This document shows, in pieces, positions 8,248 to 19,650 of a stretch of 32,000 nucleotides of DNA. The DNA comes from Halogeometricum borinquense DSM 11551 (GTDB lineage Archaea > Halobacteriota > Halobacteria > Halobacteriales > Haloferacaceae), in the NCBI RefSeq assembly GCF_000172995.2, contig NC_014729.1, positions 270,001-302,000 of the forward strand, written 5' to 3'. The translations under genes were made by a program, and so were the position numbers. The notes below the pieces were generated by a model. That model searched no databases. It was not told the origin of the DNA and worked only from the letters and a program-made list of their open reading frames with translations. Position 1 is the stretch's first letter, and every line of letters begins with the position of its first letter.

Positions 8248-9183
8248 TCAGCTACCGGCCGCAGTTCGTGCTTCCCGGCGCGCCTGTTCGACGGACTTGC
8301 CGTCGCGGACGATGGCGTCTACGAACAGCTCTCCCGCTTTGTACGACGACCGAACCATCGGGCCGGAGGCGCAGTAGAGGAATCCTAACTCGTCCTCGGC
8401 CACTTGTCGCCACGTCTCGAACGCGTCGGGATGGACGTACTCGAACACGTCGAGATGCGTCCGCGACGGTTGCAGGTACTGTCCCAGCGTCACTACGTCC
8501 ACATCGGCCTCGCGGAGATCAGACAGCGTCTGGTAGATCTCGTGGTCGTACTCGCCGAGACCGAGCATGATGCTCGTCTTGGTGTAGATGTCCGACTCGC
8601 GTTTGACCTGTTCGAGAACCGACAGCGATTGCTCGTAGTTCGCGCGTCGATCGCGGACCGGCCACTGGAGACGTTCGACCGTCTCGATGTTGTGCGCGAT
8701 GACATCCGGTTTCGCGTCGATTATCTTCCGGACCGCTTCCTCGTCGCCCTGGAAGTCGGGGATGAGTACTTCGACGAGAATGCTCGGGTCGCGCTGTTTG
8801 ATCTCGCGGATGGTCTGTGCGAAGTGTGATGCGCCTTGATCCGGCAGATCGTCGCGGTCAACGGATGTGAGGACGACGTAGTCCAGTCCGATTTCGGCCA
8901 CTGCCGCGGCGACGTTCGCTGGTTCGTCGGGATCCAACGGCTCCATCCCACCGGTCTGCACGTCGCAGAAGTTGCACCCGCGCGAACACCGGTCGCCCAT
9001 CAGCATGAACGTCGCTGTGCCGGGACCGTCGCGTCCGCTCCAACACTCGCCCATGTTCGGGCAGTTCGCTTCCTCGCAGACGGTGTGTAAGTCGCGGTCT
9101 CGGAGCGTCTGCTTGATGTCAGTGAAACGTCGCCCCGACGGCGGACGCATCTTCAACCAGTCGGGCTTCCGCCTGCCGCTCAT
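8248..9183 (-). CDS. lipA: lipoyl synthase (radical SAM)
   Basis: 311 aa. N-terminal cluster CEEANCPNMGEC and radical-SAM CSRGCNFC motif. Lies directly upstream of its lipoyl-protein client operon. Confidence 0.95.
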   Translation of the reverse strand: MSGRRKPDWLKMRPPSGRRFTDIKQTLRDRDLHTVCEEANCPNMGECWSGRDGPGTATFMLMGDRCSRGCNFCDVQTGGMEPLDPDEPANVAAAVAEIGLDYVVLTSVDRDDLPDQGASHFAQTIREIKQRDPSILVEVLIPDFQGDEEAVRKIIDAKPDVIAHNIETVERLQWPVRDRRANYEQSLSVLEQVKRESDIYTKTSIMLGLGEYDHEIYQTLSDLREADVDVVTLGQYLQPSRTHLDVFEYVHPDAFETWRQVAEDELGFLYCASGPMVRSSYKAGELFVDAIVRDGKSVEQARREARTAAGS

Positions 9184-9460
9184 ATCTCACCGTTCGGCGG
9201 GGAGGTAAAAAACGTGAGGATTATTTTGAGTAGTATGTCGATTAGCTGGCCAAAGCAACGGTATCTGGGAACCTGTTTCAGCGGTTTCGAACGATATCCT
9301 CGGAGAGGTTCACTGTAGATCCGGCTATTGTCTCCACTCCAGAAGCGTTGTCTTCGAAAAGTCACGAGATTCAGTTAGGTGATCGGATTCTGGCAGGGGC
9401 ACCACGAAGCTCGTCATCCTTCACTCACTTCGGTACACTGTCGTAGCCACGAAACGAACA

Positions 9461-9468
9461 ATTATATT
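9461..9468 (+). promoter_or_regulatory. TATA-box-like element (attatatt) upstream of the DUF4157 gene
   Basis: It lies about 27 nt upstream of the ATG at 9494, the spacing expected for a leaderless haloarchaeal transcript. Confidence 0.4.
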
Positions 9469-9493
9469 GGGTGTATGTCATTTTTGGATAGGA

Positions 9494-11077
9494 ATGGGAT
9501 TTCGATCTGTGGATAGGCGGGCGGACAAGAGTGATCACTCTTCTTCTGTCCCATCTATTCAAGAGCTGACGCAAGACTCTGATCGTAGCCGCGGTGGCGG
9601 TTCTCTCACACCGCAAGGGCGCGAATCTCGGTTCGGTCTCGACATGTATATGGATGGGCTGGAAGTCAAAGTCCAGCGTCTCGTCAGGAGTCATGGCGCA
9701 GACCAAGTCCGGGATTGGGCTGATGAAGGGATGACTGTCGATACCATGGGTAAACCGCGCGACATGCGTGCGTTCCGCGAACGCCAGCAGGGACGCTCTG
9801 CCGAAGTCCCAAAAGACATCGAACGCCGGAACGCTAAATCCGTTCAACGGAGTCGCGGCGCGCATCACGAAGCCTCGAAAGCCGGTGACACAAAAGTACC
9901 TGACTTGGTGCGAGACGTTATCTCCTCTCCGGGGCAGACGCTCGAAACCTCGATTCAGCGCACGATGGAGGAACGGATGGGCGACAACCTAGGTGATGTA
10001 CGCATCCATACCGGTCCGTTGGCCGCCAAAGCCTGCGAGGAAATCAACGCGCGTGCGTTCACCGTCGGAAATCACATCGCGTTCAATCACGGCGAATACG
10101 ACCTAAGTTCGGCGGAAGGCCAGCACGTCCTCGCTCACGAGTTAGCGCATGTGAGACAGCAGACGGGTGGTGCCGTGTCGTTGCTCCCTCAAGAAGGCAA
10201 GCTAGAAATTGACCCAGACAAACGTCTGGAGCGGGAAGCCGAAGAAACCGCTCAACGTGTGATGAAAGGGGGGAAACTCGGCGTCTATCGGATGCACAAC
10301 TCCAAGGTGCACGTTCAGCGATTCCCGAACGACGAGGACGTTCGGGAGACAACTGACGGAGTGGGTGCGCATGGGATCCAGGTTCCAGAGTACGAGAATC
10401 TAGATCTGGAACAGTTGTTCGAGTCGTTCGAGGGGAACAGGAAGAAAGCAGTCGAACAAATCAGACAGAACGACGATCTCTGGACCTCACTGCTCCGTAC
10501 GATCGCAATGGACGTCATCCAGAGTTCGATTGAGGCGAATGGAACCAACGTAATCGAGGACGCACTCGATCGATATCACTGTAACATCGTTCAGCACGGA
10601 CACGACCCCGTTCGATTCATGACTGGTGAAGAGGCCAACGAGTGGCACCTCGAACTCAATCCGAACGACGAACGGCCGCACAAGCCAGACTGTATCGCCT
10701 TGGAGTTCAAACCGGCCAGCGAAGACCGCCTGTACAAAGTGACGAAAGAAGGAAGAAAACTGGGGTCCTTCTTGGCACGCGAAGAAACGATTACATCGGA
10801 AGATGATCGGGAAGCGATTCTTGATGTCCTCGGACTGAAAGAAATGTGGAGTGATTACGATATGGTGTCTCAGTTGTCGATAACCGGCGAAGAAACAGTC
10901 TCAGTTTTGTCTAGCGTCGTCGGTACCATGACGGACGACTCACCGGGAGTAATTGAGCGAGAGGGAGAGCCAATCGAACGTCCTGGTGGGGAAGAACAAT
11001 TGTGGCTCAGTGATTTCTTCCCAATGGAGCAATTCGAGATGGTCGGTCCACTGGACGACTTCCAAGGAGGAAAATAA
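9494..11077 (+). CDS. DUF4157 (zincin HExxH) domain protein with divergent C-terminal domain; putative polymorphic-toxin-like effector
   Basis: The ORF contains PGQTLETSIQRTMEERMGDNLGDVRIHTGPLAAKACEEINARAFTVGNHIAFNHGEYDLSSAEGQHVLAHELAHVRQQ (nt ~9929-10171; HELAH at 10136-10150) followed by LEREAEETAQRV, which is the DUF4157 signature. About 300 further residues have no motif I can name with certainty. The track start at 9467 is a TTG. I prefer the ATG at 9494; an alternative ATG is at 9644 (MYMDGLEVKVQRLV). Confidence 0.85.
   Translation: MGFRSVDRRADKSDHSSSVPSIQELTQDSDRSRGGGSLTPQGRESRFGLDMYMDGLEVKVQRLVRSHGADQVRDWADEGMTVDTMGKPRDMRAFRERQQGRSAEVPKDIERRNAKSVQRSRGAHHEASKAGDTKVPDLVRDVISSPGQTLETSIQRTMEERMGDNLGDVRIHTGPLAAKACEEINARAFTVGNHIAFNHGEYDLSSAEGQHVLAHELAHVRQQTGGAVSLLPQEGKLEIDPDKRLEREAEETAQRVMKGGKLGVYRMHNSKVHVQRFPNDEDVRETTDGVGAHGIQVPEYENLDLEQLFESFEGNRKKAVEQIRQNDDLWTSLLRTIAMDVIQSSIEANGTNVIEDALDRYHCNIVQHGHDPVRFMTGEEANEWHLELNPNDERPHKPDCIALEFKPASEDRLYKVTKEGRKLGSFLAREETITSEDDREAILDVLGLKEMWSDYDMVSQLSITGEETVSVLSSVVGTMTDDSPGVIEREGEPIERPGGEEQLWLSDFFPMEQFEMVGPLDDFQGGK
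11066..11071 (+). promoter_or_regulatory. Shine-Dalgarno-like GGAGGA 5 nt upstream of the immunity-candidate ATG
   Basis: Sequence ccaaGGAGGAaaaTAATGg. The toxin stop TAA (11075-11077) shares one nucleotide with the ATG at 11077-11079. Confidence 0.6.
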
Positions 11078-11415
11078 TGGCAAAAATAGAATACGATGGC
11101 CGGGAACTGACGGTCGGTACCCAAACAGTTGTGCTTCGTCACAAGATTGGCCAGGTCTTGGAAGAAGATGGGATAATCCTCGTGGTCCTCTCTCCGTCAC
11201 AGACGGAGGGCCGTGACCAACGTAATCTGCTGGCGTTTGACGAGCAAGGAAACAAACTGTGGGAGTCTGAGATTCCGGAGCACTCGGAGCGCCACATGTT
11301 TGGAGAGATATATAAAGAGAACGGAGATATCATTGGATGGAGTTGGAACTCCAACGAGTACAAAATCGATTTAGAGACTGGCGCACTCGAAAACATCGGC
11401 TACGGCGGGAAGTAA
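11077..11415 (+). CDS. small cytoplasmic protein, candidate cognate immunity/antitoxin protein
   Basis: 112-aa ORF translationally coupled to the DUF4157 gene by the TAATG overlap and SD. It shares the same low-GC codon usage. No signal peptide or TM segment. Beta-rich sequence with a blade-like NLLAFDEQGNKLWE motif. Confidence 0.7.
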   Translation: MAKIEYDGRELTVGTQTVVLRHKIGQVLEEDGIILVVLSPSQTEGRDQRNLLAFDEQGNKLWESEIPEHSERHMFGEIYKENGDIIGWSWNSNEYKIDLETGALENIGYGGK

Positions 11416-11456
11416 TGACATTTGTAAAATCGAATTGAACTGCTTCCTGAAAGTGG

Positions 11457-11532
11457 GCGTTACCCCGTCCGAAGAGATCGACCAGCACTCGATATATGTC
11501 AACAAAACAATTCCATCAGATGGGGGTAACGC
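11457..11532. repeat. 10-bp perfect inverted repeat gcgttacccc ... ggggtaacgc separated by 56 nt
   Basis: Arms at 11457-11466 and 11523-11532, read directly. Located 42 nt downstream of the immunity-candidate stop, in AT-rich non-coding DNA. Confidence 0.5.
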
Positions 11533-11979
11533 TTGGCGGTACGGTGAGCCGACAAAATAGGCTGAAGGAAGCTTAATAAATGTGGCAGATTAGTTATGAG
11601 GAAGAAGAACAAAAATATCCATATTGGCTATTAAATGTCTAAGGCTCCTTTTATCGCTGCTGACTCTCACACCAAAAAACCGTGACACAGTTATCACAAT
11701 TTCGAAATACTCATACCTGAGTAAATCTGAGTGTGGGGTATGAACTGGAAACACCGCCGCGACCGAACGAAGGCAGAGTCGAAGAAAGAGGAGACGAAGA
11801 CCGGCACGAAGTGGTCGTTCATCGCCGCCGCAGTCGGCGCTGCGTAATTCGATTTTCCCTCTGTTCCACCGTCCGCCGAGCGATTGCGCTCGACCGCGTG
11901 AAGAAACGCCTTTTAGTTCGTAGGTCTGGGTGTCGCGTATGACTCTCGCTCTCGCGTTCCGCCGTCGGAGGTCTCTCGC

Positions 11980-14340
11980 GTGAAGGTCGAATCGGTCGTC
12001 CCCGAGTTCGCTGACGCCTTCGGTTTCGACGAGTTCAACCGGATGCAACGGGAGGCGGCCCCCGCCATCTTAGAGCGCGACGAGAACGTCGTCGCGGCCG
12101 CGCCGACCGCGAGCGGGAAGACGGCGCTCGCCGAGTTAGCGATCTGTCGCGCGCTCCGAAACGACGGCACCGCCCTCTTCATCGCCCCACTCCGCGCCCT
12201 TACGAACGAGAAGGAGTCCGAGTGGGAGCGCTTCGAGGAACTCGGCTACTCCGTCTACGTCGTCACCGGCGAACGCGATCTGAATCCCCGGCGCGCCGAA
12301 CGCGCCGACATCCTCGTGATGACGCCGGAGAAGACGGACTCGGCGACGCGAAAACACGAATCCGCCCGCTACTCGTTCATTACCGATGTCGACTGCTGTG
12401 TCATCGACGAAGTCCACCTCCTCGATTCGGACACCCGTGGCGGCGTCCTCGAAGTCACCGTCTCGCGCCTGCGCCGTATCTGCGACCCGCGCGTCGTCGC
12501 CCTCTCGGCGACGATGCCGAACGTCGAGGATGTCGCAAACTGGTTGGACGCGCCGCCGGAGACGACGTTCGAGTTCGGTGACGACTATCGCCCCGTGGAC
12601 CTCCACGCGGGCGTCAAGACGTACTCGCACGGCGAGAACTCCTTTGCGGACAAGTACCGACGGCTCTACCGCGCTATCGACCTCTCCGAACAGCACATCC
12701 GCGACGGCGGTCAGGCCCTCGTTTTCGTCTCCTCGCGGCAGGACACTGTCCGCGCTGCCGGGAAAGCCCGCGACGAACTCGGCAAGCGCGACATCCCTAT
12801 CGGCGCGCGCGGTGACTACGACTTCCACAACGAGGCCAAGGAGTTGAGCAACGATTCGCTTCGCAAAGCCGTCCCCGACGGCGTCGGCTTCCACCACGCC
12901 GGGTTGGCGAAAGACGACCGCGATAAAGTCGAAGCGTGGTTCAAAGAAGGGAAGATTCAGCTACTCTTTTCGACCTCGACGCTGGCGTGGGGGGTCAACC
13001 TCCCGGCGCGGTGCGTCGTCATCCGCGATACGAAGTACCACGATCCACTCGAAGGCGAGGTGGACATCTCGCCGCTGGACATCCTCCAGATGCTCGGCCG
13101 CGCGGGACGCCCTGGATACGACGACGTGGGGTACGGTTGGGTCGTCTGCGACCGCTCGGACGCCGATAAATACCGCCGACTGCTCCGCGAGGGCAAGGAG
13201 ATCGAGTCGCGCCTCGCGGAGGACCTCGACTCGCATCTCAACGCCGAGATTGCGATGGGAACTATCGGCGACCTAGAGGACGTGATGTCGTGGTTGCAGA
13301 CGACGTTCTACTACCAGCGCGCGCGTTCGAAGCCGAACGAGTACGATTTCGACGGCTTGCGAGAACGCGTACGCGAGACGCTCGAATCGCTCGTCGCACG
13401 CGGATTCGTTGAAATGGAGTCTGACCTCTCTATCGAGGCGACGCGACTCGGCCGTCTCGCCTCGAAGTACTATCTCCGCCTCGATACCGCCCGTCGATTT
13501 GCCTCGCTTTGTGACCGCGACACCATCACCGACGAGTCGATTCTGGAGACCGTGGCTGGGGCCGCAGAGTTCCACGACGTGTCGGCGCGGCAGTCCGAGA
13601 TGGACGCCGTCGATTCGGTTCTCACGGGCGTGGACACGACGCTCGAAGACGGCCCGCGGAAGGTACTCGCCATCCTGTACGCGGGGATGTCGAACAGCAC
13701 CCCCTCTGACCTCCGGTCGGATGCGTGGGTCATCCGACAGAACGGGCTACGACTGCTTTCAGCACTCAGAGAGTTCGTTGATGCCTTTGCCGGCCCTCGC
13801 GCCGCCAATCTCGCCCGCCGTGTCGAGGCCCGCGTCGAACACGGTGTCTCGCGCGATGCCGTTGCTCTCACTGCCGTAGACGGTATCGGACCGAACCGTG
13901 CGAGCAAACTCGCCACGGGTGGCCTTCGCTCCCCGCGAGATGTGGTTGAAGCCGGAACCGCCGAACTCACACAGGCTGGACTTTCGGATGGCGTGGCAAA
14001 GCAGGTAGTGCAGAACGCGCGCAACTTCCCCGATATCGACATCGCGTGGGGTGACTTCCCAGACTGCATCGGAACGGGTGAAAACCAGATGTGCGAGGTT
14101 CGCGTCCGCAACCGCGCGGGCGGTGCGACGGTCGGCATCCGCGTCACTGCTGTCGCCGGCGAGACGGGTGCTGACGAGGCGGAAATGACGACGAAACGGA
14201 CGTATCTCTCGGACGAGACTGCCGTCCACGTCGGGGTCTTCGGCGCACCCGCAGACGAGGTGACGTACCGCGTGGAAGTGACGTTCCCCGACGACCCGCT
14301 TCACCCGATTACAGAGACACGAACGGTTCGGGTGTCGTAG
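11980..14340 (+). CDS. Ski2/Brr2-like DEVH-box helicase with C-terminal Sec63-type module (Hel308 superfamily)
   Basis: 786 aa. Motif I AAPTASGKT, motif II DEVH, LSATMPN, HHAGL, TSTLAWGVNLPA, QMLGRAGRPG. This is followed by a winged-helix/ratchet/HhH-like region and a ~110-aa beta-rich tail. The start is a GTG at 11980; the next in-frame Met is 21 codons downstream. Confidence 0.88.
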   Translation: MKVESVVPEFADAFGFDEFNRMQREAAPAILERDENVVAAAPTASGKTALAELAICRALRNDGTALFIAPLRALTNEKESEWERFEELGYSVYVVTGERDLNPRRAERADILVMTPEKTDSATRKHESARYSFITDVDCCVIDEVHLLDSDTRGGVLEVTVSRLRRICDPRVVALSATMPNVEDVANWLDAPPETTFEFGDDYRPVDLHAGVKTYSHGENSFADKYRRLYRAIDLSEQHIRDGGQALVFVSSRQDTVRAAGKARDELGKRDIPIGARGDYDFHNEAKELSNDSLRKAVPDGVGFHHAGLAKDDRDKVEAWFKEGKIQLLFSTSTLAWGVNLPARCVVIRDTKYHDPLEGEVDISPLDILQMLGRAGRPGYDDVGYGWVVCDRSDADKYRRLLREGKEIESRLAEDLDSHLNAEIAMGTIGDLEDVMSWLQTTFYYQRARSKPNEYDFDGLRERVRETLESLVARGFVEMESDLSIEATRLGRLASKYYLRLDTARRFASLCDRDTITDESILETVAGAAEFHDVSARQSEMDAVDSVLTGVDTTLEDGPRKVLAILYAGMSNSTPSDLRSDAWVIRQNGLRLLSALREFVDAFAGPRAANLARRVEARVEHGVSRDAVALTAVDGIGPNRASKLATGGLRSPRDVVEAGTAELTQAGLSDGVAKQVVQNARNFPDIDIAWGDFPDCIGTGENQMCEVRVRNRAGGATVGIRVTAVAGETGADEAEMTTKRTYLSDETAVHVGVFGAPADEVTYRVEVTFPDDPLHPITETRTVRVS

Positions 14341-14359
14341 ACGCTCTCCTGACGTCGTA

Positions 14360-14404
14360 TTCACACTCATACAGCTCACACCCGTACAGTTCACACTCAC
14401 ACAG
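14360..14404. repeat. three tandem imperfect 15-nt repeats (ttcacactcatacag / ctcacacccgtacag / ttcacactcacacag)
   Basis: Read directly. Degenerate continuation (..actcag ttcactcg..) to about 14434. Lies in the 131-nt convergent spacer between the helicase and the HAD gene. Confidence 0.8.
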
Positions 14405-14471
14405 TGTTCCCGGGTACTCAGTTCACTCGACGCGAAACGAAGGGGTCCGTCCCGCGATCATCGCCGCTAAT

Positions 14472-15122
14472 TCAGTCAAATAATACCTCACGCAGTTCCG
14501 CCGGTCCATCGACCACCACTGCCGCTCGTGAGAGGTCCAACTCGGCGTTGTGCGTCGAACGGTAGGCGACTGTGAACGCGCCGGCCCGTACGGCCGCCTC
14601 GACGCCGTGGACGGAGTCTTCGACGACGACGCACGACTGGGGGTCGAGACCGACCGCTTCAGCCGCGTGTTCGTAGATGTGCGGTTCTGGCTTGCCCGGT
14701 TTGTCGATGTCGTCCGCGCTCAAAACAAGGTCGAGCGGGTCGAGACCGAACCGGTCGCGGACGATTCCGATCCAGTCCTGCGGTGCGGAGGAGACGATTC
14801 CTAACTGCCGCCCGTCGTCGCGGATGTCGTCGAACAGTGCGTTCGCGCCGTCCATCAGACGCACCTGTTCGCCGTACAGCGACTGTGCGCGGTCGTCGTA
14901 GGCTGCTACGAATTCCGCTTTCGTTACCGTGGTGCCGTACGTCTCGGAGAGGTAGTCGTAGATCTCCCGGTAGTTCATCCCCGTCACCTCCTCGTGTGAC
15001 GGGTCTCCGGATTCGATAGCCGCAGCGAACACCCAGTCGTCCTCGAACTGGTGCCAGTACGTCTCTGAATCGACCAGCACGCCGTCCATGTCGAACAACA
15101 CCGCTTCGTCGGGGACGTTCAT
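14472..15122 (-). CDS. HAD-IA family hydrolase (beta-phosphoglucomutase-like phosphatase)
   Basis: LFDMDGVLVDSE motif I and a C-terminal VVEDSVHGVEAAVRAGA motif. The track start at 15146 is a GTG; the ATG at 15122 (MNVPDEAVLFDMDG) is preferred. Confidence 0.8.
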   Translation of the reverse strand: MNVPDEAVLFDMDGVLVDSETYWHQFEDDWVFAAAIESGDPSHEEVTGMNYREIYDYLSETYGTTVTKAEFVAAYDDRAQSLYGEQVRLMDGANALFDDIRDDGRQLGIVSSAPQDWIGIVRDRFGLDPLDLVLSADDIDKPGKPEPHIYEHAAEAVGLDPQSCVVVEDSVHGVEAAVRAGAFTVAYRSTHNAELDLSRAAVVVDGPAELREVLFD

Positions 15123-15987: not shown

Positions 15988-17010
15988 ATGGACGCCACAC
16001 TGCACGACGACGTCGTTCGGGTCGGGGACGACGCGCGTCAACGGTTCTACGATTCGAGAGGCTACGGTCGGCCACTCGACGGGAACCGACTCGAACTCGC
16101 GCCGGTCGAGGCGGCGCACTTGCTCTCTCGGGGAGACCTCGACGACATCGACGGTATGGAATTCCGCGAGTTCCTCGCGGAGACCGGCGCGGCGTTGGCC
16201 TTCGTCGTCTACAAAGACCTTCGGGACCGGGGATTCTACCTCTCTCCCGCGCGCGAGGAGTGGCCGGGTGTTTCCGACGCCGACGGCATCGATTTCGTCG
16301 TCTACCCGCGCGGAAAGGGACCGACGGACGGCGACGTGGAGTACCGAATCCGCGTCATCGGCGAACGCGAACGCGTGGCCGCTGCGTCGCTCGGGGACGT
16401 CGTTCTCGCCGTCGTGGACGAGGACGGTGATCTGACGTACTTTGACACCGACGATGACCCGGACGTGGGTGGGACGGACGATTACATACCGCCAGAGGGA
16501 CTCGATGCGGACCTTCTCTCGGACCGCGTCGTCTGCTACGAATCGCCCGACGAAGTGTATGAAAACGGCTTCTACGGCCAACGGCTGTTCGGGCGCAACG
16601 CCGAGGAGGGGCCGCTGCAACTGTCGCTCATCGAGGGCGCATATCTCGCTCGCCGGGGTGTTATCGACGTTGACGACGAGGAGGTCGTCGCGTTGGCCCG
16701 CGACGTGGAGGGCGACCGGTTCGACCGCCGCCTGAAGACGTACGCGGCCCTCAGAGACGCTGGCTCCGTCCCCAAGAGCGGGTTCAAGTTTGGTGCTGAC
16801 TTCCGCGTCTACACCGATTTCGAGACGGTGTCGTCGCTGAGTCACTCCGCCGACCTCGTTCGCGTCGTCACACCGGACCACGCGTTCTTCCCCCGTGACC
16901 TTTCGTTGGACGTTCGACTCGCTGGCGGGGTCCGGAAACGAATGGTTTTTGCGCTCACAGACGCCAACGATGGCATAGACTGGCTTTCGGTAGCCCGACT
17001 CACCCCATGA
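15988..17010 (+). CDS. endA: tRNA-splicing endonuclease (tRNA-intron lyase), duplicated-domain haloarchaeal type
   Basis: MDATLHDDVVRVGDDARQRFYDSRGYGRPL... plus a C-terminal SGFKFGADFRVY...SHSADLV catalytic-domain pattern. The upstream part of the track ORF (15700-15987) overlaps the previous gene in another frame. Alternative ATG at 15961. Confidence 0.88.
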   Translation: MDATLHDDVVRVGDDARQRFYDSRGYGRPLDGNRLELAPVEAAHLLSRGDLDDIDGMEFREFLAETGAALAFVVYKDLRDRGFYLSPAREEWPGVSDADGIDFVVYPRGKGPTDGDVEYRIRVIGERERVAAASLGDVVLAVVDEDGDLTYFDTDDDPDVGGTDDYIPPEGLDADLLSDRVVCYESPDEVYENGFYGQRLFGRNAEEGPLQLSLIEGAYLARRGVIDVDDEEVVALARDVEGDRFDRRLKTYAALRDAGSVPKSGFKFGADFRVYTDFETVSSLSHSADLVRVVTPDHAFFPRDLSLDVRLAGGVRKRMVFALTDANDGIDWLSVARLTP

Positions 17011-18623
17011 TACGAGACGACGACATTGAGACCGACGCGTCGGTACGCGAGGACGCCCGCACAGACGGGGGTACCTCCGCAGAAGGAGCAGACGACGTAG
17101 CGCTCGACCCGTGGGGTTCCTCGACCATCTCGGACTACCGTAAACTGTTCGAGGAGTTCGGCATCGAGGAGTTCGACGAGGTGCTGTCGGACGTTCCGAA
17201 CCCCCACTACCTGATGCGCCGCGGTGTCATCTTCGGCCATCGAGACTACCGCCCCGTTGCGGAGGCGATGCGCGACGGCGACCCGTTCGCCGTCCTTTCG
17301 GGGTTCATGCCGACGGGCGACCCCCACATCGGACACAAACTCGTCTTCGACGAGATCATCTGGCACCAACAGCAGGGCGGCGATGCGTACGGTCTCATCG
17401 CCGACCTCGAAGCCCACTCCGCGCGCGGCATGACGTGGGAGGAAATCGACAAGCACGCGCGCGATTACCTCCTCTCACTTCTTGCGCTCGGGTTCGACCC
17501 AGAGGAGGGCGAACTCTACCGGCAGTCGGACAACCGCCAACTGCAGGATCTCAGCTTCGAACTCGGGTCGAAAGCGAATTTCTCGGAGTTCGAGGCGATC
17601 TACGGCTTCGACAGCGGGACGAACGTCTCGCACTTACAGTCGGTCGTCACGCAGATGGCCGACATCCTCTACCCGCAGTTGGACGAACCCAAACCGACGG
17701 TCATTCCGGTCGGTCCGGATCAGGACCCGCACGTGCGTCTCGCACGCGACCTCGCCGCACGGATGCGCTTTTTCAAGGTCACAGAGGCGTACGCGAGCTT
17801 CGAACTCACGGACGCGGAACGCGATCTCGTCGCCAGCCTCTACGAGACGCTTGACCCGGCTGATTTCGACGACGACGACCTGCGCTGTGTCCACGTCGCG
17901 CAGTTCCTCGACGGCGTCACGCCCGAAGAACTCGACGTCGTCGTCGACGCCGAGACGATTTCCTCCGCGCAGACGAAACTCAACGAAGCGGGCATGGAAC
18001 CGCTTCGCCCGCGCGTTCGGTTCCTCGACGCCAACGCCACCGACGAGGCGTTCGACGCTCTCGTGGAGGCTATCGACGGCGAGAAACGCCGCTACGACGA
18101 ACATATCGACGCCTTCGATCTCTCGTTCGAGGCGGCTGACGAACTGGCCCGTGAAGTGGAGGTCGAACACGGCGGCTACGGATTTGTCGCGCCGTCGTCC
18201 ATCTACCACCGCTTCATGACCGGTCTGACGGGCGGGAAGATGTCCTCGTCAATTCCTGCGAGTCACATTTCGCTCTTGGACGACCCCGAGGACGGCTACA
18301 ACAAGGTAAAATCGGCCACGACCGGTGGCCGCGAGACGGCCGAGAAACAGCGCGAACTCGGCGGTGAGGCGGACAAATGTCCGGTTTACGAACTGTACGC
18401 CTACCTCCTGTCGGGCGACGACGACGAGTTCGCCAAAGAAGTGTACGACGAGTGCGTCGGTGGCGAACGCCTCTGTGGCGGGTGCAAAGAGCAGGCGGCT
18501 GAACTCATGCGCGCGTTCCTCGAAGACCATCAGGAGAAACGCGAAGAGATGGAGGAACTGCTGGACGACCTCGACATCTCCACCGACTCGCAGCGCCGCG
18601 GTGTCGCCCCCAGCGACGACTGA
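17007..18623 (+). CDS. trpS: tryptophan--tRNA ligase (long haloarchaeal form)
   Basis: 538 aa. HIGH-type motif TGDPHIGH, GPDQDPH, KMSKS-type motif KMSSS. The ATG overlaps the endA stop (ATGA, 17007-17010). Confidence 0.92.
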   Translation: MIRDDDIETDASVREDARTDGGTSAEGADDVALDPWGSSTISDYRKLFEEFGIEEFDEVLSDVPNPHYLMRRGVIFGHRDYRPVAEAMRDGDPFAVLSGFMPTGDPHIGHKLVFDEIIWHQQQGGDAYGLIADLEAHSARGMTWEEIDKHARDYLLSLLALGFDPEEGELYRQSDNRQLQDLSFELGSKANFSEFEAIYGFDSGTNVSHLQSVVTQMADILYPQLDEPKPTVIPVGPDQDPHVRLARDLAARMRFFKVTEAYASFELTDAERDLVASLYETLDPADFDDDDLRCVHVAQFLDGVTPEELDVVVDAETISSAQTKLNEAGMEPLRPRVRFLDANATDEAFDALVEAIDGEKRRYDEHIDAFDLSFEAADELAREVEVEHGGYGFVAPSSIYHRFMTGLTGGKMSSSIPASHISLLDDPEDGYNKVKSATTGGRETAEKQRELGGEADKCPVYELYAYLLSGDDDEFAKEVYDECVGGERLCGGCKEQAAELMRAFLEDHQEKREEMEELLDDLDISTDSQRRGVAPSDD

Positions 18624-18673
18624 CGGGCGACTGTGGCGACGACTGACGGGCGACTGTGGCGACGACTGACGGC
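18613..18673. repeat. 23-nt tandem direct repeat, 2.65 copies (gcgacgactgacgggcgactgtg)
   Basis: Copies at 18613-18635 and 18636-18658 are identical. A partial third copy spans 18659-18673. Copy 1 contains the last three codons and the stop codon of trpS. Confidence 0.9.
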
Positions 18674-18681
18674 CACTTCTG

Positions 18682-19650
18682 TTACAGTTCGACGACCGTT
18701 CCGACTCCGTCCGTTTCTGCCCGTTCGTACAGATACCCTGCCGTCACCGCGTCCAGCACCGCCGACCCGACGCTGGCGACGACGACTATCTCAGCGTCGT
18801 TTTCTCTGCCCGTGCCTGCCTCGAACACGTCGGAAAACGGCGTGAGATCCGTCGCATCCACGCCGACGTACGCGAAGTCGCCCGTCTCAGCCACTTCCTC
18901 GGGCACGTCTGCGAACAGGCGGCTCGCACGCCGGACCGTCTCAGAATCCAGTTCACGCATTGATTCTGTGAACGCGCCGATAGCGACGACGAGCGTTCCC
19001 GGTTCGAGTCGCGCACCGTCGAACACCGGTTCGGTACTGGTCGTCGCCGTGACGACGACGTTCGATCCGTCGAGTACTGGATCGGGTGATTCGACCGCTG
19101 ACACGGCAACGTCCGAGAGTCGCTCGCGGAGATCCGAAGCACACTGCGCACGCGATTCGGAGGGTGCGTAGATTCGGACCCGTTCGAGATTCGTTGCCGA
19201 CGCGATAGCGCGCGTCTGCCACCGCGCCTGTGCGCCCGCGCCGAACACACCGAGTCTGACGGGCGCGTCCGCGAGTTCGCGGGCCGCAAGGCCGCCGATG
19301 CATCCCGTTCTGGCGTTTGTTACGCGCGTCCCCGCGAGGTACGCGCGCGGAAGACCAGTTTCGGCGTCGGTGACGGCAATCTGTGCGTTCACTGTCGGGA
19401 GTCCTTTTTCGGCGTTCGACTCGTGGACGGCGGCGAGTTTCGTCGCGTACGTCGGATCGCCGTGGACGTACGCGGGCATCGTCAGCGCGGTTCCGGGCGT
19501 CTCCGTCCCGACTGGGTAGTGCGGACGCGGTGGCCGCTCGACCTCGCCGCGACCCTGCTTTAGGAACGCTCGTTCGATCTCGGGCAGGAGATCCGACAGC
19601 GAGAGCAACGAGGCGACCTGTTCGTCGGAGAGAACGCGGACATCGGCCAT
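18682..19650 (-). CDS. ornithine cyclodeaminase / mu-crystallin family protein
   Basis: 322 aa. MADVRVLSDEQVASLLSLSDLLPEIERAFLKQGRGEVERPPR N-terminus and a Rossmann segment LGVFGAGAQARWQ, typical of the OCD/mu-crystallin family. Confidence 0.8.
   Translation of the reverse strand: MADVRVLSDEQVASLLSLSDLLPEIERAFLKQGRGEVERPPRPHYPVGTETPGTALTMPAYVHGDPTYATKLAAVHESNAEKGLPTVNAQIAVTDAETGLPRAYLAGTRVTNARTGCIGGLAARELADAPVRLGVFGAGAQARWQTRAIASATNLERVRIYAPSESRAQCASDLRERLSDVAVSAVESPDPVLDGSNVVVTATTSTEPVFDGARLEPGTLVVAIGAFTESMRELDSETVRRASRLFADVPEEVAETGDFAYVGVDATDLTPFSDVFEAGTGRENDAEIVVVASVGSAVLDAVTAGYLYERAETDGVGTVVEL

Follow-up and report, generated by a model that had tools for sequence, protein, structure and literature searches.

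The window analysed here, a 32,000-nucleotide stretch of the Halogeometricum borinquense DSM 11551 genome (NC_014729.1, positions 270,001 to 302,000), carries a gene for a DUF4157 protein followed by a small overlapping open reading frame (ORF). A first-pass annotation, made from the DNA letters alone, had read the two as a polymorphic toxin with its immunity gene and had considered them the most likely undescribed system in the window, with delivery unknown. The locus raises the questions of whether the pair is new, by what route its toxin could reach another cell, and what the C-terminal part of the toxin might do. With respect to the first, the pair is already known: it has been published experimentally, for exactly these genes, as Hbor_02990 and Hbor_03000, and does not constitute a new system. 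What is new here is prediction only, namely a Tse6/Rhs1-CT-like fold of the type found in nicotinamide adenine dinucleotide (phosphate) (NAD(P)+) glycohydrolases (NADases) for the C-terminal domain, and a putative mobile cassette formed by this domain and DUF7957.

Identity of the gene pair and its published function

The protein encoded in the window was 100% identical over 527 amino acids to H. borinquense WP_241432376.1, the 90% cluster of which includes ADQ65909.1 ('hypothetical protein Hbor_02990', DSM 11551), a GenBank model of 448 amino acids. The gene-specific parts of primers from the supplement of Zachs et al. 2024 (PMC11566945) gave unique exact matches in the window, with pWL102et_Hbor02990_for2 matching 9731-9748 on the forward strand and pWL102et_Hbor03000_rev matching 11393-11412 on the reverse strand. 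Because of the protein identity and the exact primer matches, the pair was equated with the published Hbor_02990/Hbor_03000 toxin-immunity pair. This identity, together with the roles of the two products as toxin, immunity protein and cargo of a contractile injection system (CIS), is as good as certain.

Zachs et al. ('Archaeal type six secretion system mediates contact-dependent antagonism', Sci Adv 2024; PMC11566945) reported contact-dependent killing of Haloferax volcanii by H. borinquense, which uses for this a CIS that is anchored in the cytoplasmic membrane and encoded by the cluster Hbor_38640-38890 on plasmid pHBOR03. Five DUF4157 proteins, Hbor_02990 among them, were enriched in the wild-type secretome relative to that of a cis2::novR sheath mutant. 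Attempts to establish Hbor_02990 alone in H. volcanii yielded either no transformants or an insert that had been excised, an outcome that the authors interpreted as toxicity; establishment succeeded when it was cloned together with the downstream Hbor_03000 (PMC11566945). The pair belongs to the first contact-dependent killing system to be demonstrated in archaea. Delivery can thus no longer be called unknown, since secretion of Hbor_02990 depends on the sheath of this CIS, a type six secretion system (T6SS) (PMC11566945). Nor was the system undescribed: besides the 2024 publication of the same pair, Zhang et al. 2012 (PMC3482391) had described 'PVC-metallopeptidase' (that is, DUF4157) polymorphic toxins with a constant HExxHxxQ-E peptidase N-terminus and variable toxin C-termini, and had explicitly named H. 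borinquense as an archaeon with multiple toxins of this kind. DUF4157 has also been reported as a marker of cargo of extracellular CIS (eCIS), with its role stated to be unknown (Geller et al. 2021, PMC8213781; Danov et al. 2024, PMC11297309).

The best overall explanation, and a very likely one, is that Hbor_02990/Hbor_03000 is a chromosomal satellite cargo-immunity pair of the membrane-anchored CIS (archaeal T6SS) encoded on pHBOR03.

A polymorphic toxin family in CIS-positive haloarchaea

A search of 5.8 billion proteins yielded 839 matches, the best 120 of which were analysed. These homologues were 318 to 893 amino acids long and aligned over the N-terminal 35-72% of the query (mostly ∼40-60%) at identities of up to 86%, and the ends of their BLAST alignments were concentrated at query amino acids 275-295. 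At the end of similarity, 116 of the 120 carried the pattern [VILMF][HYF][VIL]Q[A-Z] (typically [VI]H[VIL]QR), which reads VHVQR in Hbor_02990. The 116 sequences following this junction motif fell into 25 unrelated BLAST clusters, the C-terminus of the query being a singleton. VHVQR marks the point at which recombination separates the constant from the variable part, and offers a defined module boundary for probing the role of DUF4157. Pfam domains in the other C-termini included a GH-E nuclease, a deaminase and colicin D (the last two from precomputed annotation), and the C-terminus at locus L016 was weakly EndoU-like.

Scanning of genomes provided 34 related loci from Haloferax larsenii, H. 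elongans, Haloferax sp. S1W, Natrinema spp. and Haloarchaeobius. A downstream ORF started within -7 to +12 nucleotides of the toxin stop in 25 of the 27 intact loci, a count in which the annotated 149-amino-acid ORF of L010 was taken as having an upstream-extended start. The type of C-terminus and the downstream ORF varied together: the GH-E nuclease was followed by an ankyrin-repeat protein (L003) and the toxin of L032 by a SUKH/SMI1 protein, both classical immunity families of polymorphic toxins (PMC3482391), and toxin type T2 was paired with the same small ORF, I1, in three loci. The polymorphic toxin plus immunity layout proposed for the window was borne out by this comparison, which applied the polymorphism check suggested with it: homologues share the constant DUF4157 N-terminus, their C-termini are swapped, and the cognate downstream ORFs co-vary.

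The exception to this co-variation was one family of 300-330 amino acids (I0), which followed seven different C-terminal clusters and behaves as a shared partner rather than as a toxin-specific immunity protein. I0 had no Pfam match, and its ORF started a few nucleotides from the toxin stop (∼11220-12570 in locus coordinates) at L002, L004, L006-L008, L011, L012, L014, L015, L017, L018 and L023-L027; the preceding C-termini were mostly coiled-coil plus Gly/Ala-rich, membrane-like tails.

Linkage of the family to injection genes was seen in our own data for Haloferax paralogues and, for H. borinquense, is taken from the literature. On plasmid pHFX2 of Haloferax sp. S1W, a paralogue (L012) lay directly 3' of genes for Phage_GPD, Phage_base_V (spike), two Baseplate_J proteins and Tail_P2_I, and an H. 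larsenii paralogue (L027) had the same CIS-gene neighbours, as judged by a matching ORF layout. The strains with a CIS that Zachs et al. list and test include H. elongans, H. larsenii and Natrinema species (PMC11566945). Within H. borinquense, the paralogue P0003 (79% identity over 55% of the query) was found on a plasmid-sized contig of 210,350 bp, and we identify it with Hbor_38900, the validated toxin beside the CIS cluster, because its ...WFSGLN end matches the Hbor_38900 reverse primer. Among haloarchaea with a CIS, this family is a textbook case of a polymorphic toxin system. Hbor_02990 can be called an orphan, as it was at first, inside the window but not in the genome, which holds many paralogues and the plasmid CIS cluster.

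Could the pair instead be a purely intracellular toxin-antitoxin (TA) or abortive-infection module that carries DUF4157 and is not an exported weapon? Its two overlapping genes have a toxin/antidote layout, the toxin has no signal peptide, and the pair sits far from the injection genes on a small islet of low guanine plus cytosine (GC) content amid housekeeping genes. However, Hbor_02990 is present in the secretome in a manner that depends on the CIS sheath (PMC11566945), its constant region was 74-86% identical to paralogues inside or beside CIS clusters, and its architecture is that of a polymorphic toxin and not of a type II TA. An intracellular role of this kind is extremely improbable, and was rejected on the published secretome data.

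Two further observations concern the fate and surroundings of the paralogues. Members in Natrinema and Haloferax elongans (L021, L029, L030 and L033; match start ∼10001) were truncated or frameshifted, with ORFs of 3-238 amino acids through the matched region, suggesting that paralogues often decay. Close to a DUF4157 toxin on pHFX2 (L007), a pentapeptide-repeat/ion-channel fusion and a Cas_TM1802-type protein were encoded at 12511-14844 and 16928-19135; the toxin genes of this plasmid sit in a variable, defence-rich region.

The constant region and the role of DUF4157

The DUF4157 module recognised in the ORF by the first-pass annotation was found by Pfam with high significance (PF13699, amino acids 150-226; E=4.7e-30, 104 bits versus a cutoff of 22), with HELAH at amino acid 215 and LEREAEE at 245. 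The first 149 amino acids of the toxin gave no Pfam or NCBIfam match. Similarity to the family was 74-86% identity in the best local alignments with paralogues and orthologues, over the constant region only (Table 1). Residues H215, E216, H219 and Q222 were invariant in 116 of 116 homologues, E246 was kept in 99% and E248 in 96%, and the LEREAE helix as a whole was >95% conserved. The (near-)invariance of HExxHxxQ and of the downstream Glu argues for retained metal binding or catalysis. An AlphaFold2 (AF2) model of amino acids 1-281, based on a 78-sequence alignment, had a mean per-residue confidence score (pLDDT) of 67.5, and placed a disordered tail (amino acids 1-42) before helices (45-125) and a mixed alpha/beta DUF4157 core (137-258). 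The linker that holds VHVQR (amino acids 265-277) had a pLDDT of <50.

Autoprocessing by the DUF4157 peptidase was first proposed by Zhang et al. 2012 (PMC3482391), and VHVQR may be regarded as a candidate release site; autoproteolytic release there is, in our estimate, unlikely. Counting against a working peptidase are a Foldseek search of the constant region against PDB, which returned no significant match (the best being aminopeptidase N, an M1 zincin, at E=3.8), and the DUF4157 effector Cgo1, which is toxic independently of its metalloprotease motif (PMC11297309). A phmmer search of the constant region against PDB likewise gave nothing significant, and the putative zincin fold of DUF4157 rests on the motif, the Pfam match and the HHpred result of Zhang et al. 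(PMC3482391).

An almost evenly matched alternative is that DUF4157 is not a protease but a chaperone or adaptor, which docks the effector on the spike/PAAR or keeps it inactive, with delivery of the uncleaved protein. Loading or chaperone roles were suggested by Geller et al. 2021 (PMC8213781) and Danov et al. 2024 (PMC11297309), the result with Cgo1 points the same way, and Zachs et al. favour attachment to the spike because the tube lumen showed no density (PMC11566945). Against a purely adaptor-like domain stand the conservation of HExxHxxQ and the downstream Glu in 116 homologues and the conserved junction motif, which coincides with the module boundary and lies in a disordered linker. 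The roles of adaptor and protease are compatible with each other.

The motif [VI]QR occurs, conserved, four times in the constant region (amino acids 60-62, 117-119, 154-156 and 274-276, the last being part of VHVQR). These repeats may be protease recognition sites or coincidence.

The C-terminal module and its predicted NADase fold

As initially noted, no known domain follows DUF4157: the C-terminal 251 amino acids had no Pfam match at E≤10 and none in NCBIfam. A word-indexed search with these 251 residues missed even the source protein, and its nulls need caution. Exhaustive phmmer searching with amino acids 277-527 against 1.84 billion representatives recovered 12 proteins at E≤1e-3, several of them with different N-termini. 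The AF2 model of the module, built on an alignment of these relatives, reached a pLDDT of 84.9 and a predicted template modelling score (pTM) of 0.81. When the model was compared with PDB using Foldseek, the only matches at E<0.4 were to two related toxins, with probabilities of 0.93-1.00: Tse6 (4zv4_C and 4zv4_D, both E=3.1e-3, 4zv4_C with probability 1.00 and TMt 0.53; and 4zv0_A, Tse6-Tsi6, E=3.3e-2) and Rhs1-CT (6xtd_A, E=4.7e-3, probability 1.00, TMt 0.53). The next match had E=0.41.

Structure 6XTD is the C-terminal NAD(P)+ glycohydrolase of Rhs1 from Serratia marcescens Db10, which has been grouped with Tse6, Tne2 and TNT (PMC10539506), toxins that share a palm-domain fold. All of the Foldseek matches below E of 0.4 are thus T6SS NADases. 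The key residues of this group are a conserved aromatic and a Gln, to which the TNT subgroup adds an Arg, and each NADase has an unrelated immunity protein (PMC10539506). In the alignment of the toxin family, Q502 was invariant, F/W426 was conserved, and position 415 was Arg in 9 of 11 sequences and Lys in the query; by kind of residue, Q502, K/R415 and F/W426 resemble the TNT-type Arg-aromatic-Gln set. We judge the chances that the C-terminal domain is of NADase type, as the model predicts, to be about even. The assignment is a prediction with no sequence-level support; it supplies a biochemical hypothesis, killing by NAD(P)+ depletion, and a putative role for DUF7957.

Several points tell against an NADase. 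The Foldseek scores were modest (E ∼3e-3, TMt ∼0.5, TMq 0.3-0.37) and were obtained with a predicted structure; there was no Pfam match, and a 12-homologue profile searched against PDB sequences gave noise; and the query has Lys415 where most family members have Arg. The same modest scores (TMq 0.30-0.37) and absent sequence support would fit a domain with an unrelated activity (membrane, nuclease or other), its likeness to Tse6/Rhs1-CT being a coincidence of fold, as would the 60-amino-acid helical bundle that precedes the alpha/beta domain and has no counterpart in the Foldseek matches. This is somewhat unlikely, given that the top four matches belong to one enzyme family used by analogous delivery machinery and nothing else fell below E of 0.4, that the model of the toxin module is confident, and that its best-conserved residues include the Gln characteristic of NADases.

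TNT/Tse6-like NADases and ADP-ribosyltransferase (ART) toxins share a similar beta-sheet core, which speaks for another possibility, that the domain is an ART acting on a specific macromolecule (protein or RNA) and not an NAD(P)+ glycohydrolase. A conserved His370 just ahead of the first strand, S474 (also conserved) and the invariant Q502 loosely recall the H-Y-[EDQ] clade, represented among T6SS effectors by Tre23 (PMC8661411). However, every significant fold match was to an NADase and none to a transferase, no conserved Tyr was present at the expected position, and there was no Pfam ART match. An ART is improbable, an NADase being the more likely of the two.

The immunity protein and a toxin-DUF7957 cassette

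The 112-amino-acid product of Hbor_03000 carries PF25857 (DUF7957) according to precomputed annotation. It had no match in our local copies of Pfam and NCBIfam, the local Pfam being without PF25857. Four homologues of the toxin domain with other N-termini were examined in their five genomic contexts, and a DUF7957 homologue was found directly downstream in all five: an annotated DUF7957 ORF came immediately after each of P0121, P0127 (on two contigs) and P0125, and the ORF downstream of P0128, which was interrupted by the contig end, was 41% identical to Hbor_03000. Because DUF7957 follows the toxin domain in these other contexts, the two appear to make up a mobile cassette that does not depend on the DUF4157 chassis. 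This is the behaviour expected of a cognate toxin-immunity pair.

Locus L039 (1-7546; GCA_005388095.1, SDGW01000359.1) contained three copies of the Hbor_02990-type toxin domain, with a DUF7957 gene beside each. One of the three was the C-terminus of a Dockerin_1/TSP3 protein of >1464 amino acids, that is, the same cassette on a different delivery chassis.

We tentatively propose, at somewhat less than even likelihood, that the C-terminal module founds a small family, so far unannotated, of toxins that resemble Tse6/TNT and deplete NAD(P)+, with DUF7957 proteins as their immunity partners; that the cassette is distributed across DUF4157 CIS cargo, giant dockerin/TSP3 proteins and short stand-alone forms; and that HExxH may cut at VHVQR. 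If true, an archaeal T6SS effector would for the first time be given an enzymatic mechanism.

Gene layout, start codon and surrounding DNA

Coordinates of the pair and of its parts are collected in Table 1. An alternative in-frame TTG upstream, at 9467, would give an Hbor_02990 protein of 536 amino acids. The overlapping small ORF reported downstream was confirmed: its 112 codons start at the final base of the toxin TAA stop (an overlap of 1 nucleotide), with GGAGG just 5'.

Table 1. Features of the Hbor_02990/Hbor_03000 locus, in window coordinates.
Feature	Position	Strand	Basis or remark
Toxin gene Hbor_02990 (RefSeq WP_241432376.1, 527 aa)	9494..11077	+	Intact ORF from ATG
Variable hydrophilic N-terminal tail, aa 1-42	9494..9619	+	Predicted disordered, pLDDT <50
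Constant region, aa ~45-276: helical segment (aa ~45-125), then DUF4157	9626..10321	+	Similarity to family confined here
ATG of Met80, probably internal	9731..9733	+	Primer ATGACTGTCGATACCATG maps here
DUF4157/eCIS_core/'PVC-metallopeptidase' domain, aa 150-226	9941..10171	+	Pfam PF13699
HExxHxxQ zinc-binding signature, HELAHVRQ, aa 215-222	10136..10159	+	Signature defined in PMC3482391
LEREAEE helix, aa 245-251, downstream Glu of zincin signature	10226..10246	+	Conservation
VHVQR junction motif, aa 272-276	10307..10321	+	End of similarity; low-confidence linker
Variable toxin module, aa 277-527: helical bundle (aa ~305-366) and alpha/beta domain	10322..11074	+	AF2 model
Alpha/beta domain, aa 371-525, predicted Tse6/Rhs1-CT (TNT-like) NAD(P)+ glycohydrolase-type fold	10604..11068	+	Foldseek
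Immunity gene Hbor_03000 (112 aa, DUF7957/PF25857)	11077..11415	+	Exact match to ADQ65910.1
Low-GC islet bearing the pair	9184..11979		GC profile; identities of flanking genes

Met80 is the start of the 448-amino-acid GenBank models ADQ65909.1 and ELY26267.1 and of the published expression construct. Among the 116 homologues, conservation began at amino acids ∼45-53 and ran unbroken through Met80, with an occupancy of 0.95 at amino acids 53-79 and a conserved block (61-100) that spans Met80. Since conservation extends upstream of Met80, the 448-amino-acid model and the published construct, which miss the first 79 residues, are very probably N-terminally truncated, and the RefSeq model of 527 amino acids fits the homologues better. 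The residues missing from the cloned form could matter for loading and secretion experiments. The N-terminal tail (amino acids 1-42) had an occupancy of 0.67-0.72 and an identity of ∼0.25. The hydrophilic, predicted disordered character of this N-terminus agrees with the earlier statement that a classical signal peptide is absent.

The DNA around the pair, earlier described as foreign-looking, had a GC content of 0.50-0.55 across ∼9000-12000 versus 0.62-0.66 in the flanks. The islet is bordered by genes for lipoyl synthase (8248-9183, reverse strand) and a Hel308-type helicase (11980-14340, forward strand). The other sizeable ORFs of the window are all housekeeping: in addition to these two neighbours, they encode 2-oxoacid dehydrogenase E1/E2/E3, a NucS-like protein, tRNA-splicing endonuclease, TrpRS, PheRS alpha and beta, a class I aminoacyl-tRNA synthetase, dihydroorotate dehydrogenase and MC1. 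Genes for secretion or injection machinery, said from the start to be absent, were not found anywhere in the 32 kb. A sigma-70 promoter and terminator scan was uninformative for an archaeon.

Between the immunity gene and the helicase lies a spacer (11416-11979; GC ∼0.50) with no convincing ORF. It gave just two tblastn similarities, both sub-significant (E ∼0.03): a toxin-domain homologue matched with its C-terminal end at 11454-11513, and a DUF4157 homologue with its N-terminal part at 11885-11697. They were rejected as evidence of toxin or immunity remnants.

Proposed mechanism

In the mechanism that we propose for Hbor_02990/Hbor_03000 as a CIS cargo-immunity pair, the constant region would couple the effector to the injection apparatus, either by attachment to the spike, as proposed by Zachs et al., or by loading. 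The HExxH centre would possibly cut the disordered VHVQR linker and so free the toxin, and the C-terminal alpha/beta domain, if of the Tse6/Rhs1-CT (TNT-like) NADase type, would deplete the NAD(P)+ of the injected cell. In the producer and its kin, the DUF7957 protein would bind the toxin directly and block it. Less favourable to this scheme are two features of the published data: the toxicity consists of missing transformants and not of a quantitative killing or prey-protection assay, and the tube lumen held no cargo density, with spike attachment put forward by the authors as a proposal (PMC11566945).

Comparison with known systems

Compared with the pair of Zachs et al. 2024 (PMC11566945), the genes are the same and nothing is biologically different; that study used the 448-amino-acid Met80 model and gave no activity or domain to the C-terminus or the immunity protein. 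The window toxin resembles the PVC-metallopeptidase toxins (PMC3482391) in its HExxHxxQ-E N-terminus, the variable C-termini of its family and the association with phage-tail-like systems. Many bacterial PVC toxins are without an adjacent immunity gene, whereas members of the haloarchaeal family nearly always have a tightly coupled downstream ORF. The haloarchaeal family also differs from the bacterial toxins in an extra conserved helical segment of ∼100 amino acids before DUF4157 and in the VHVQR junction.

With the eCIS-associated toxins (EATs; PMC8213781, PMC11297309), Hbor_02990 shares a DUF4157 N-terminus, a toxin C-terminus and a disordered hydrophilic tail. In contrast to a released eCIS particle, the H. 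borinquense machine is membrane-anchored and contact-dependent, i.e. T6SS-like (PMC11566945), and Hbor_02990 lies on another replicon than the CIS cluster, whereas 88% of EATs are found within ten genes of the operon (PMC11297309).

The sole significant fold matches to the predicted C-terminal domain were Tse6/Tne1 and Rhs1-CT of Db10 (4ZV0, 4ZV4, 6XTD; PMC10539506). Hbor_02990 has no detectable sequence similarity to Tse6 or Rhs1-CT, its carrier is DUF4157 and not PAAR/Rhs, its DUF7957 immunity protein is unrelated to theirs, and its activity is predicted. Tse6/Tne1 and Rhs1-CT are likewise C-terminal effector modules, with small, family-specific immunity proteins encoded immediately downstream (PMC10539506).

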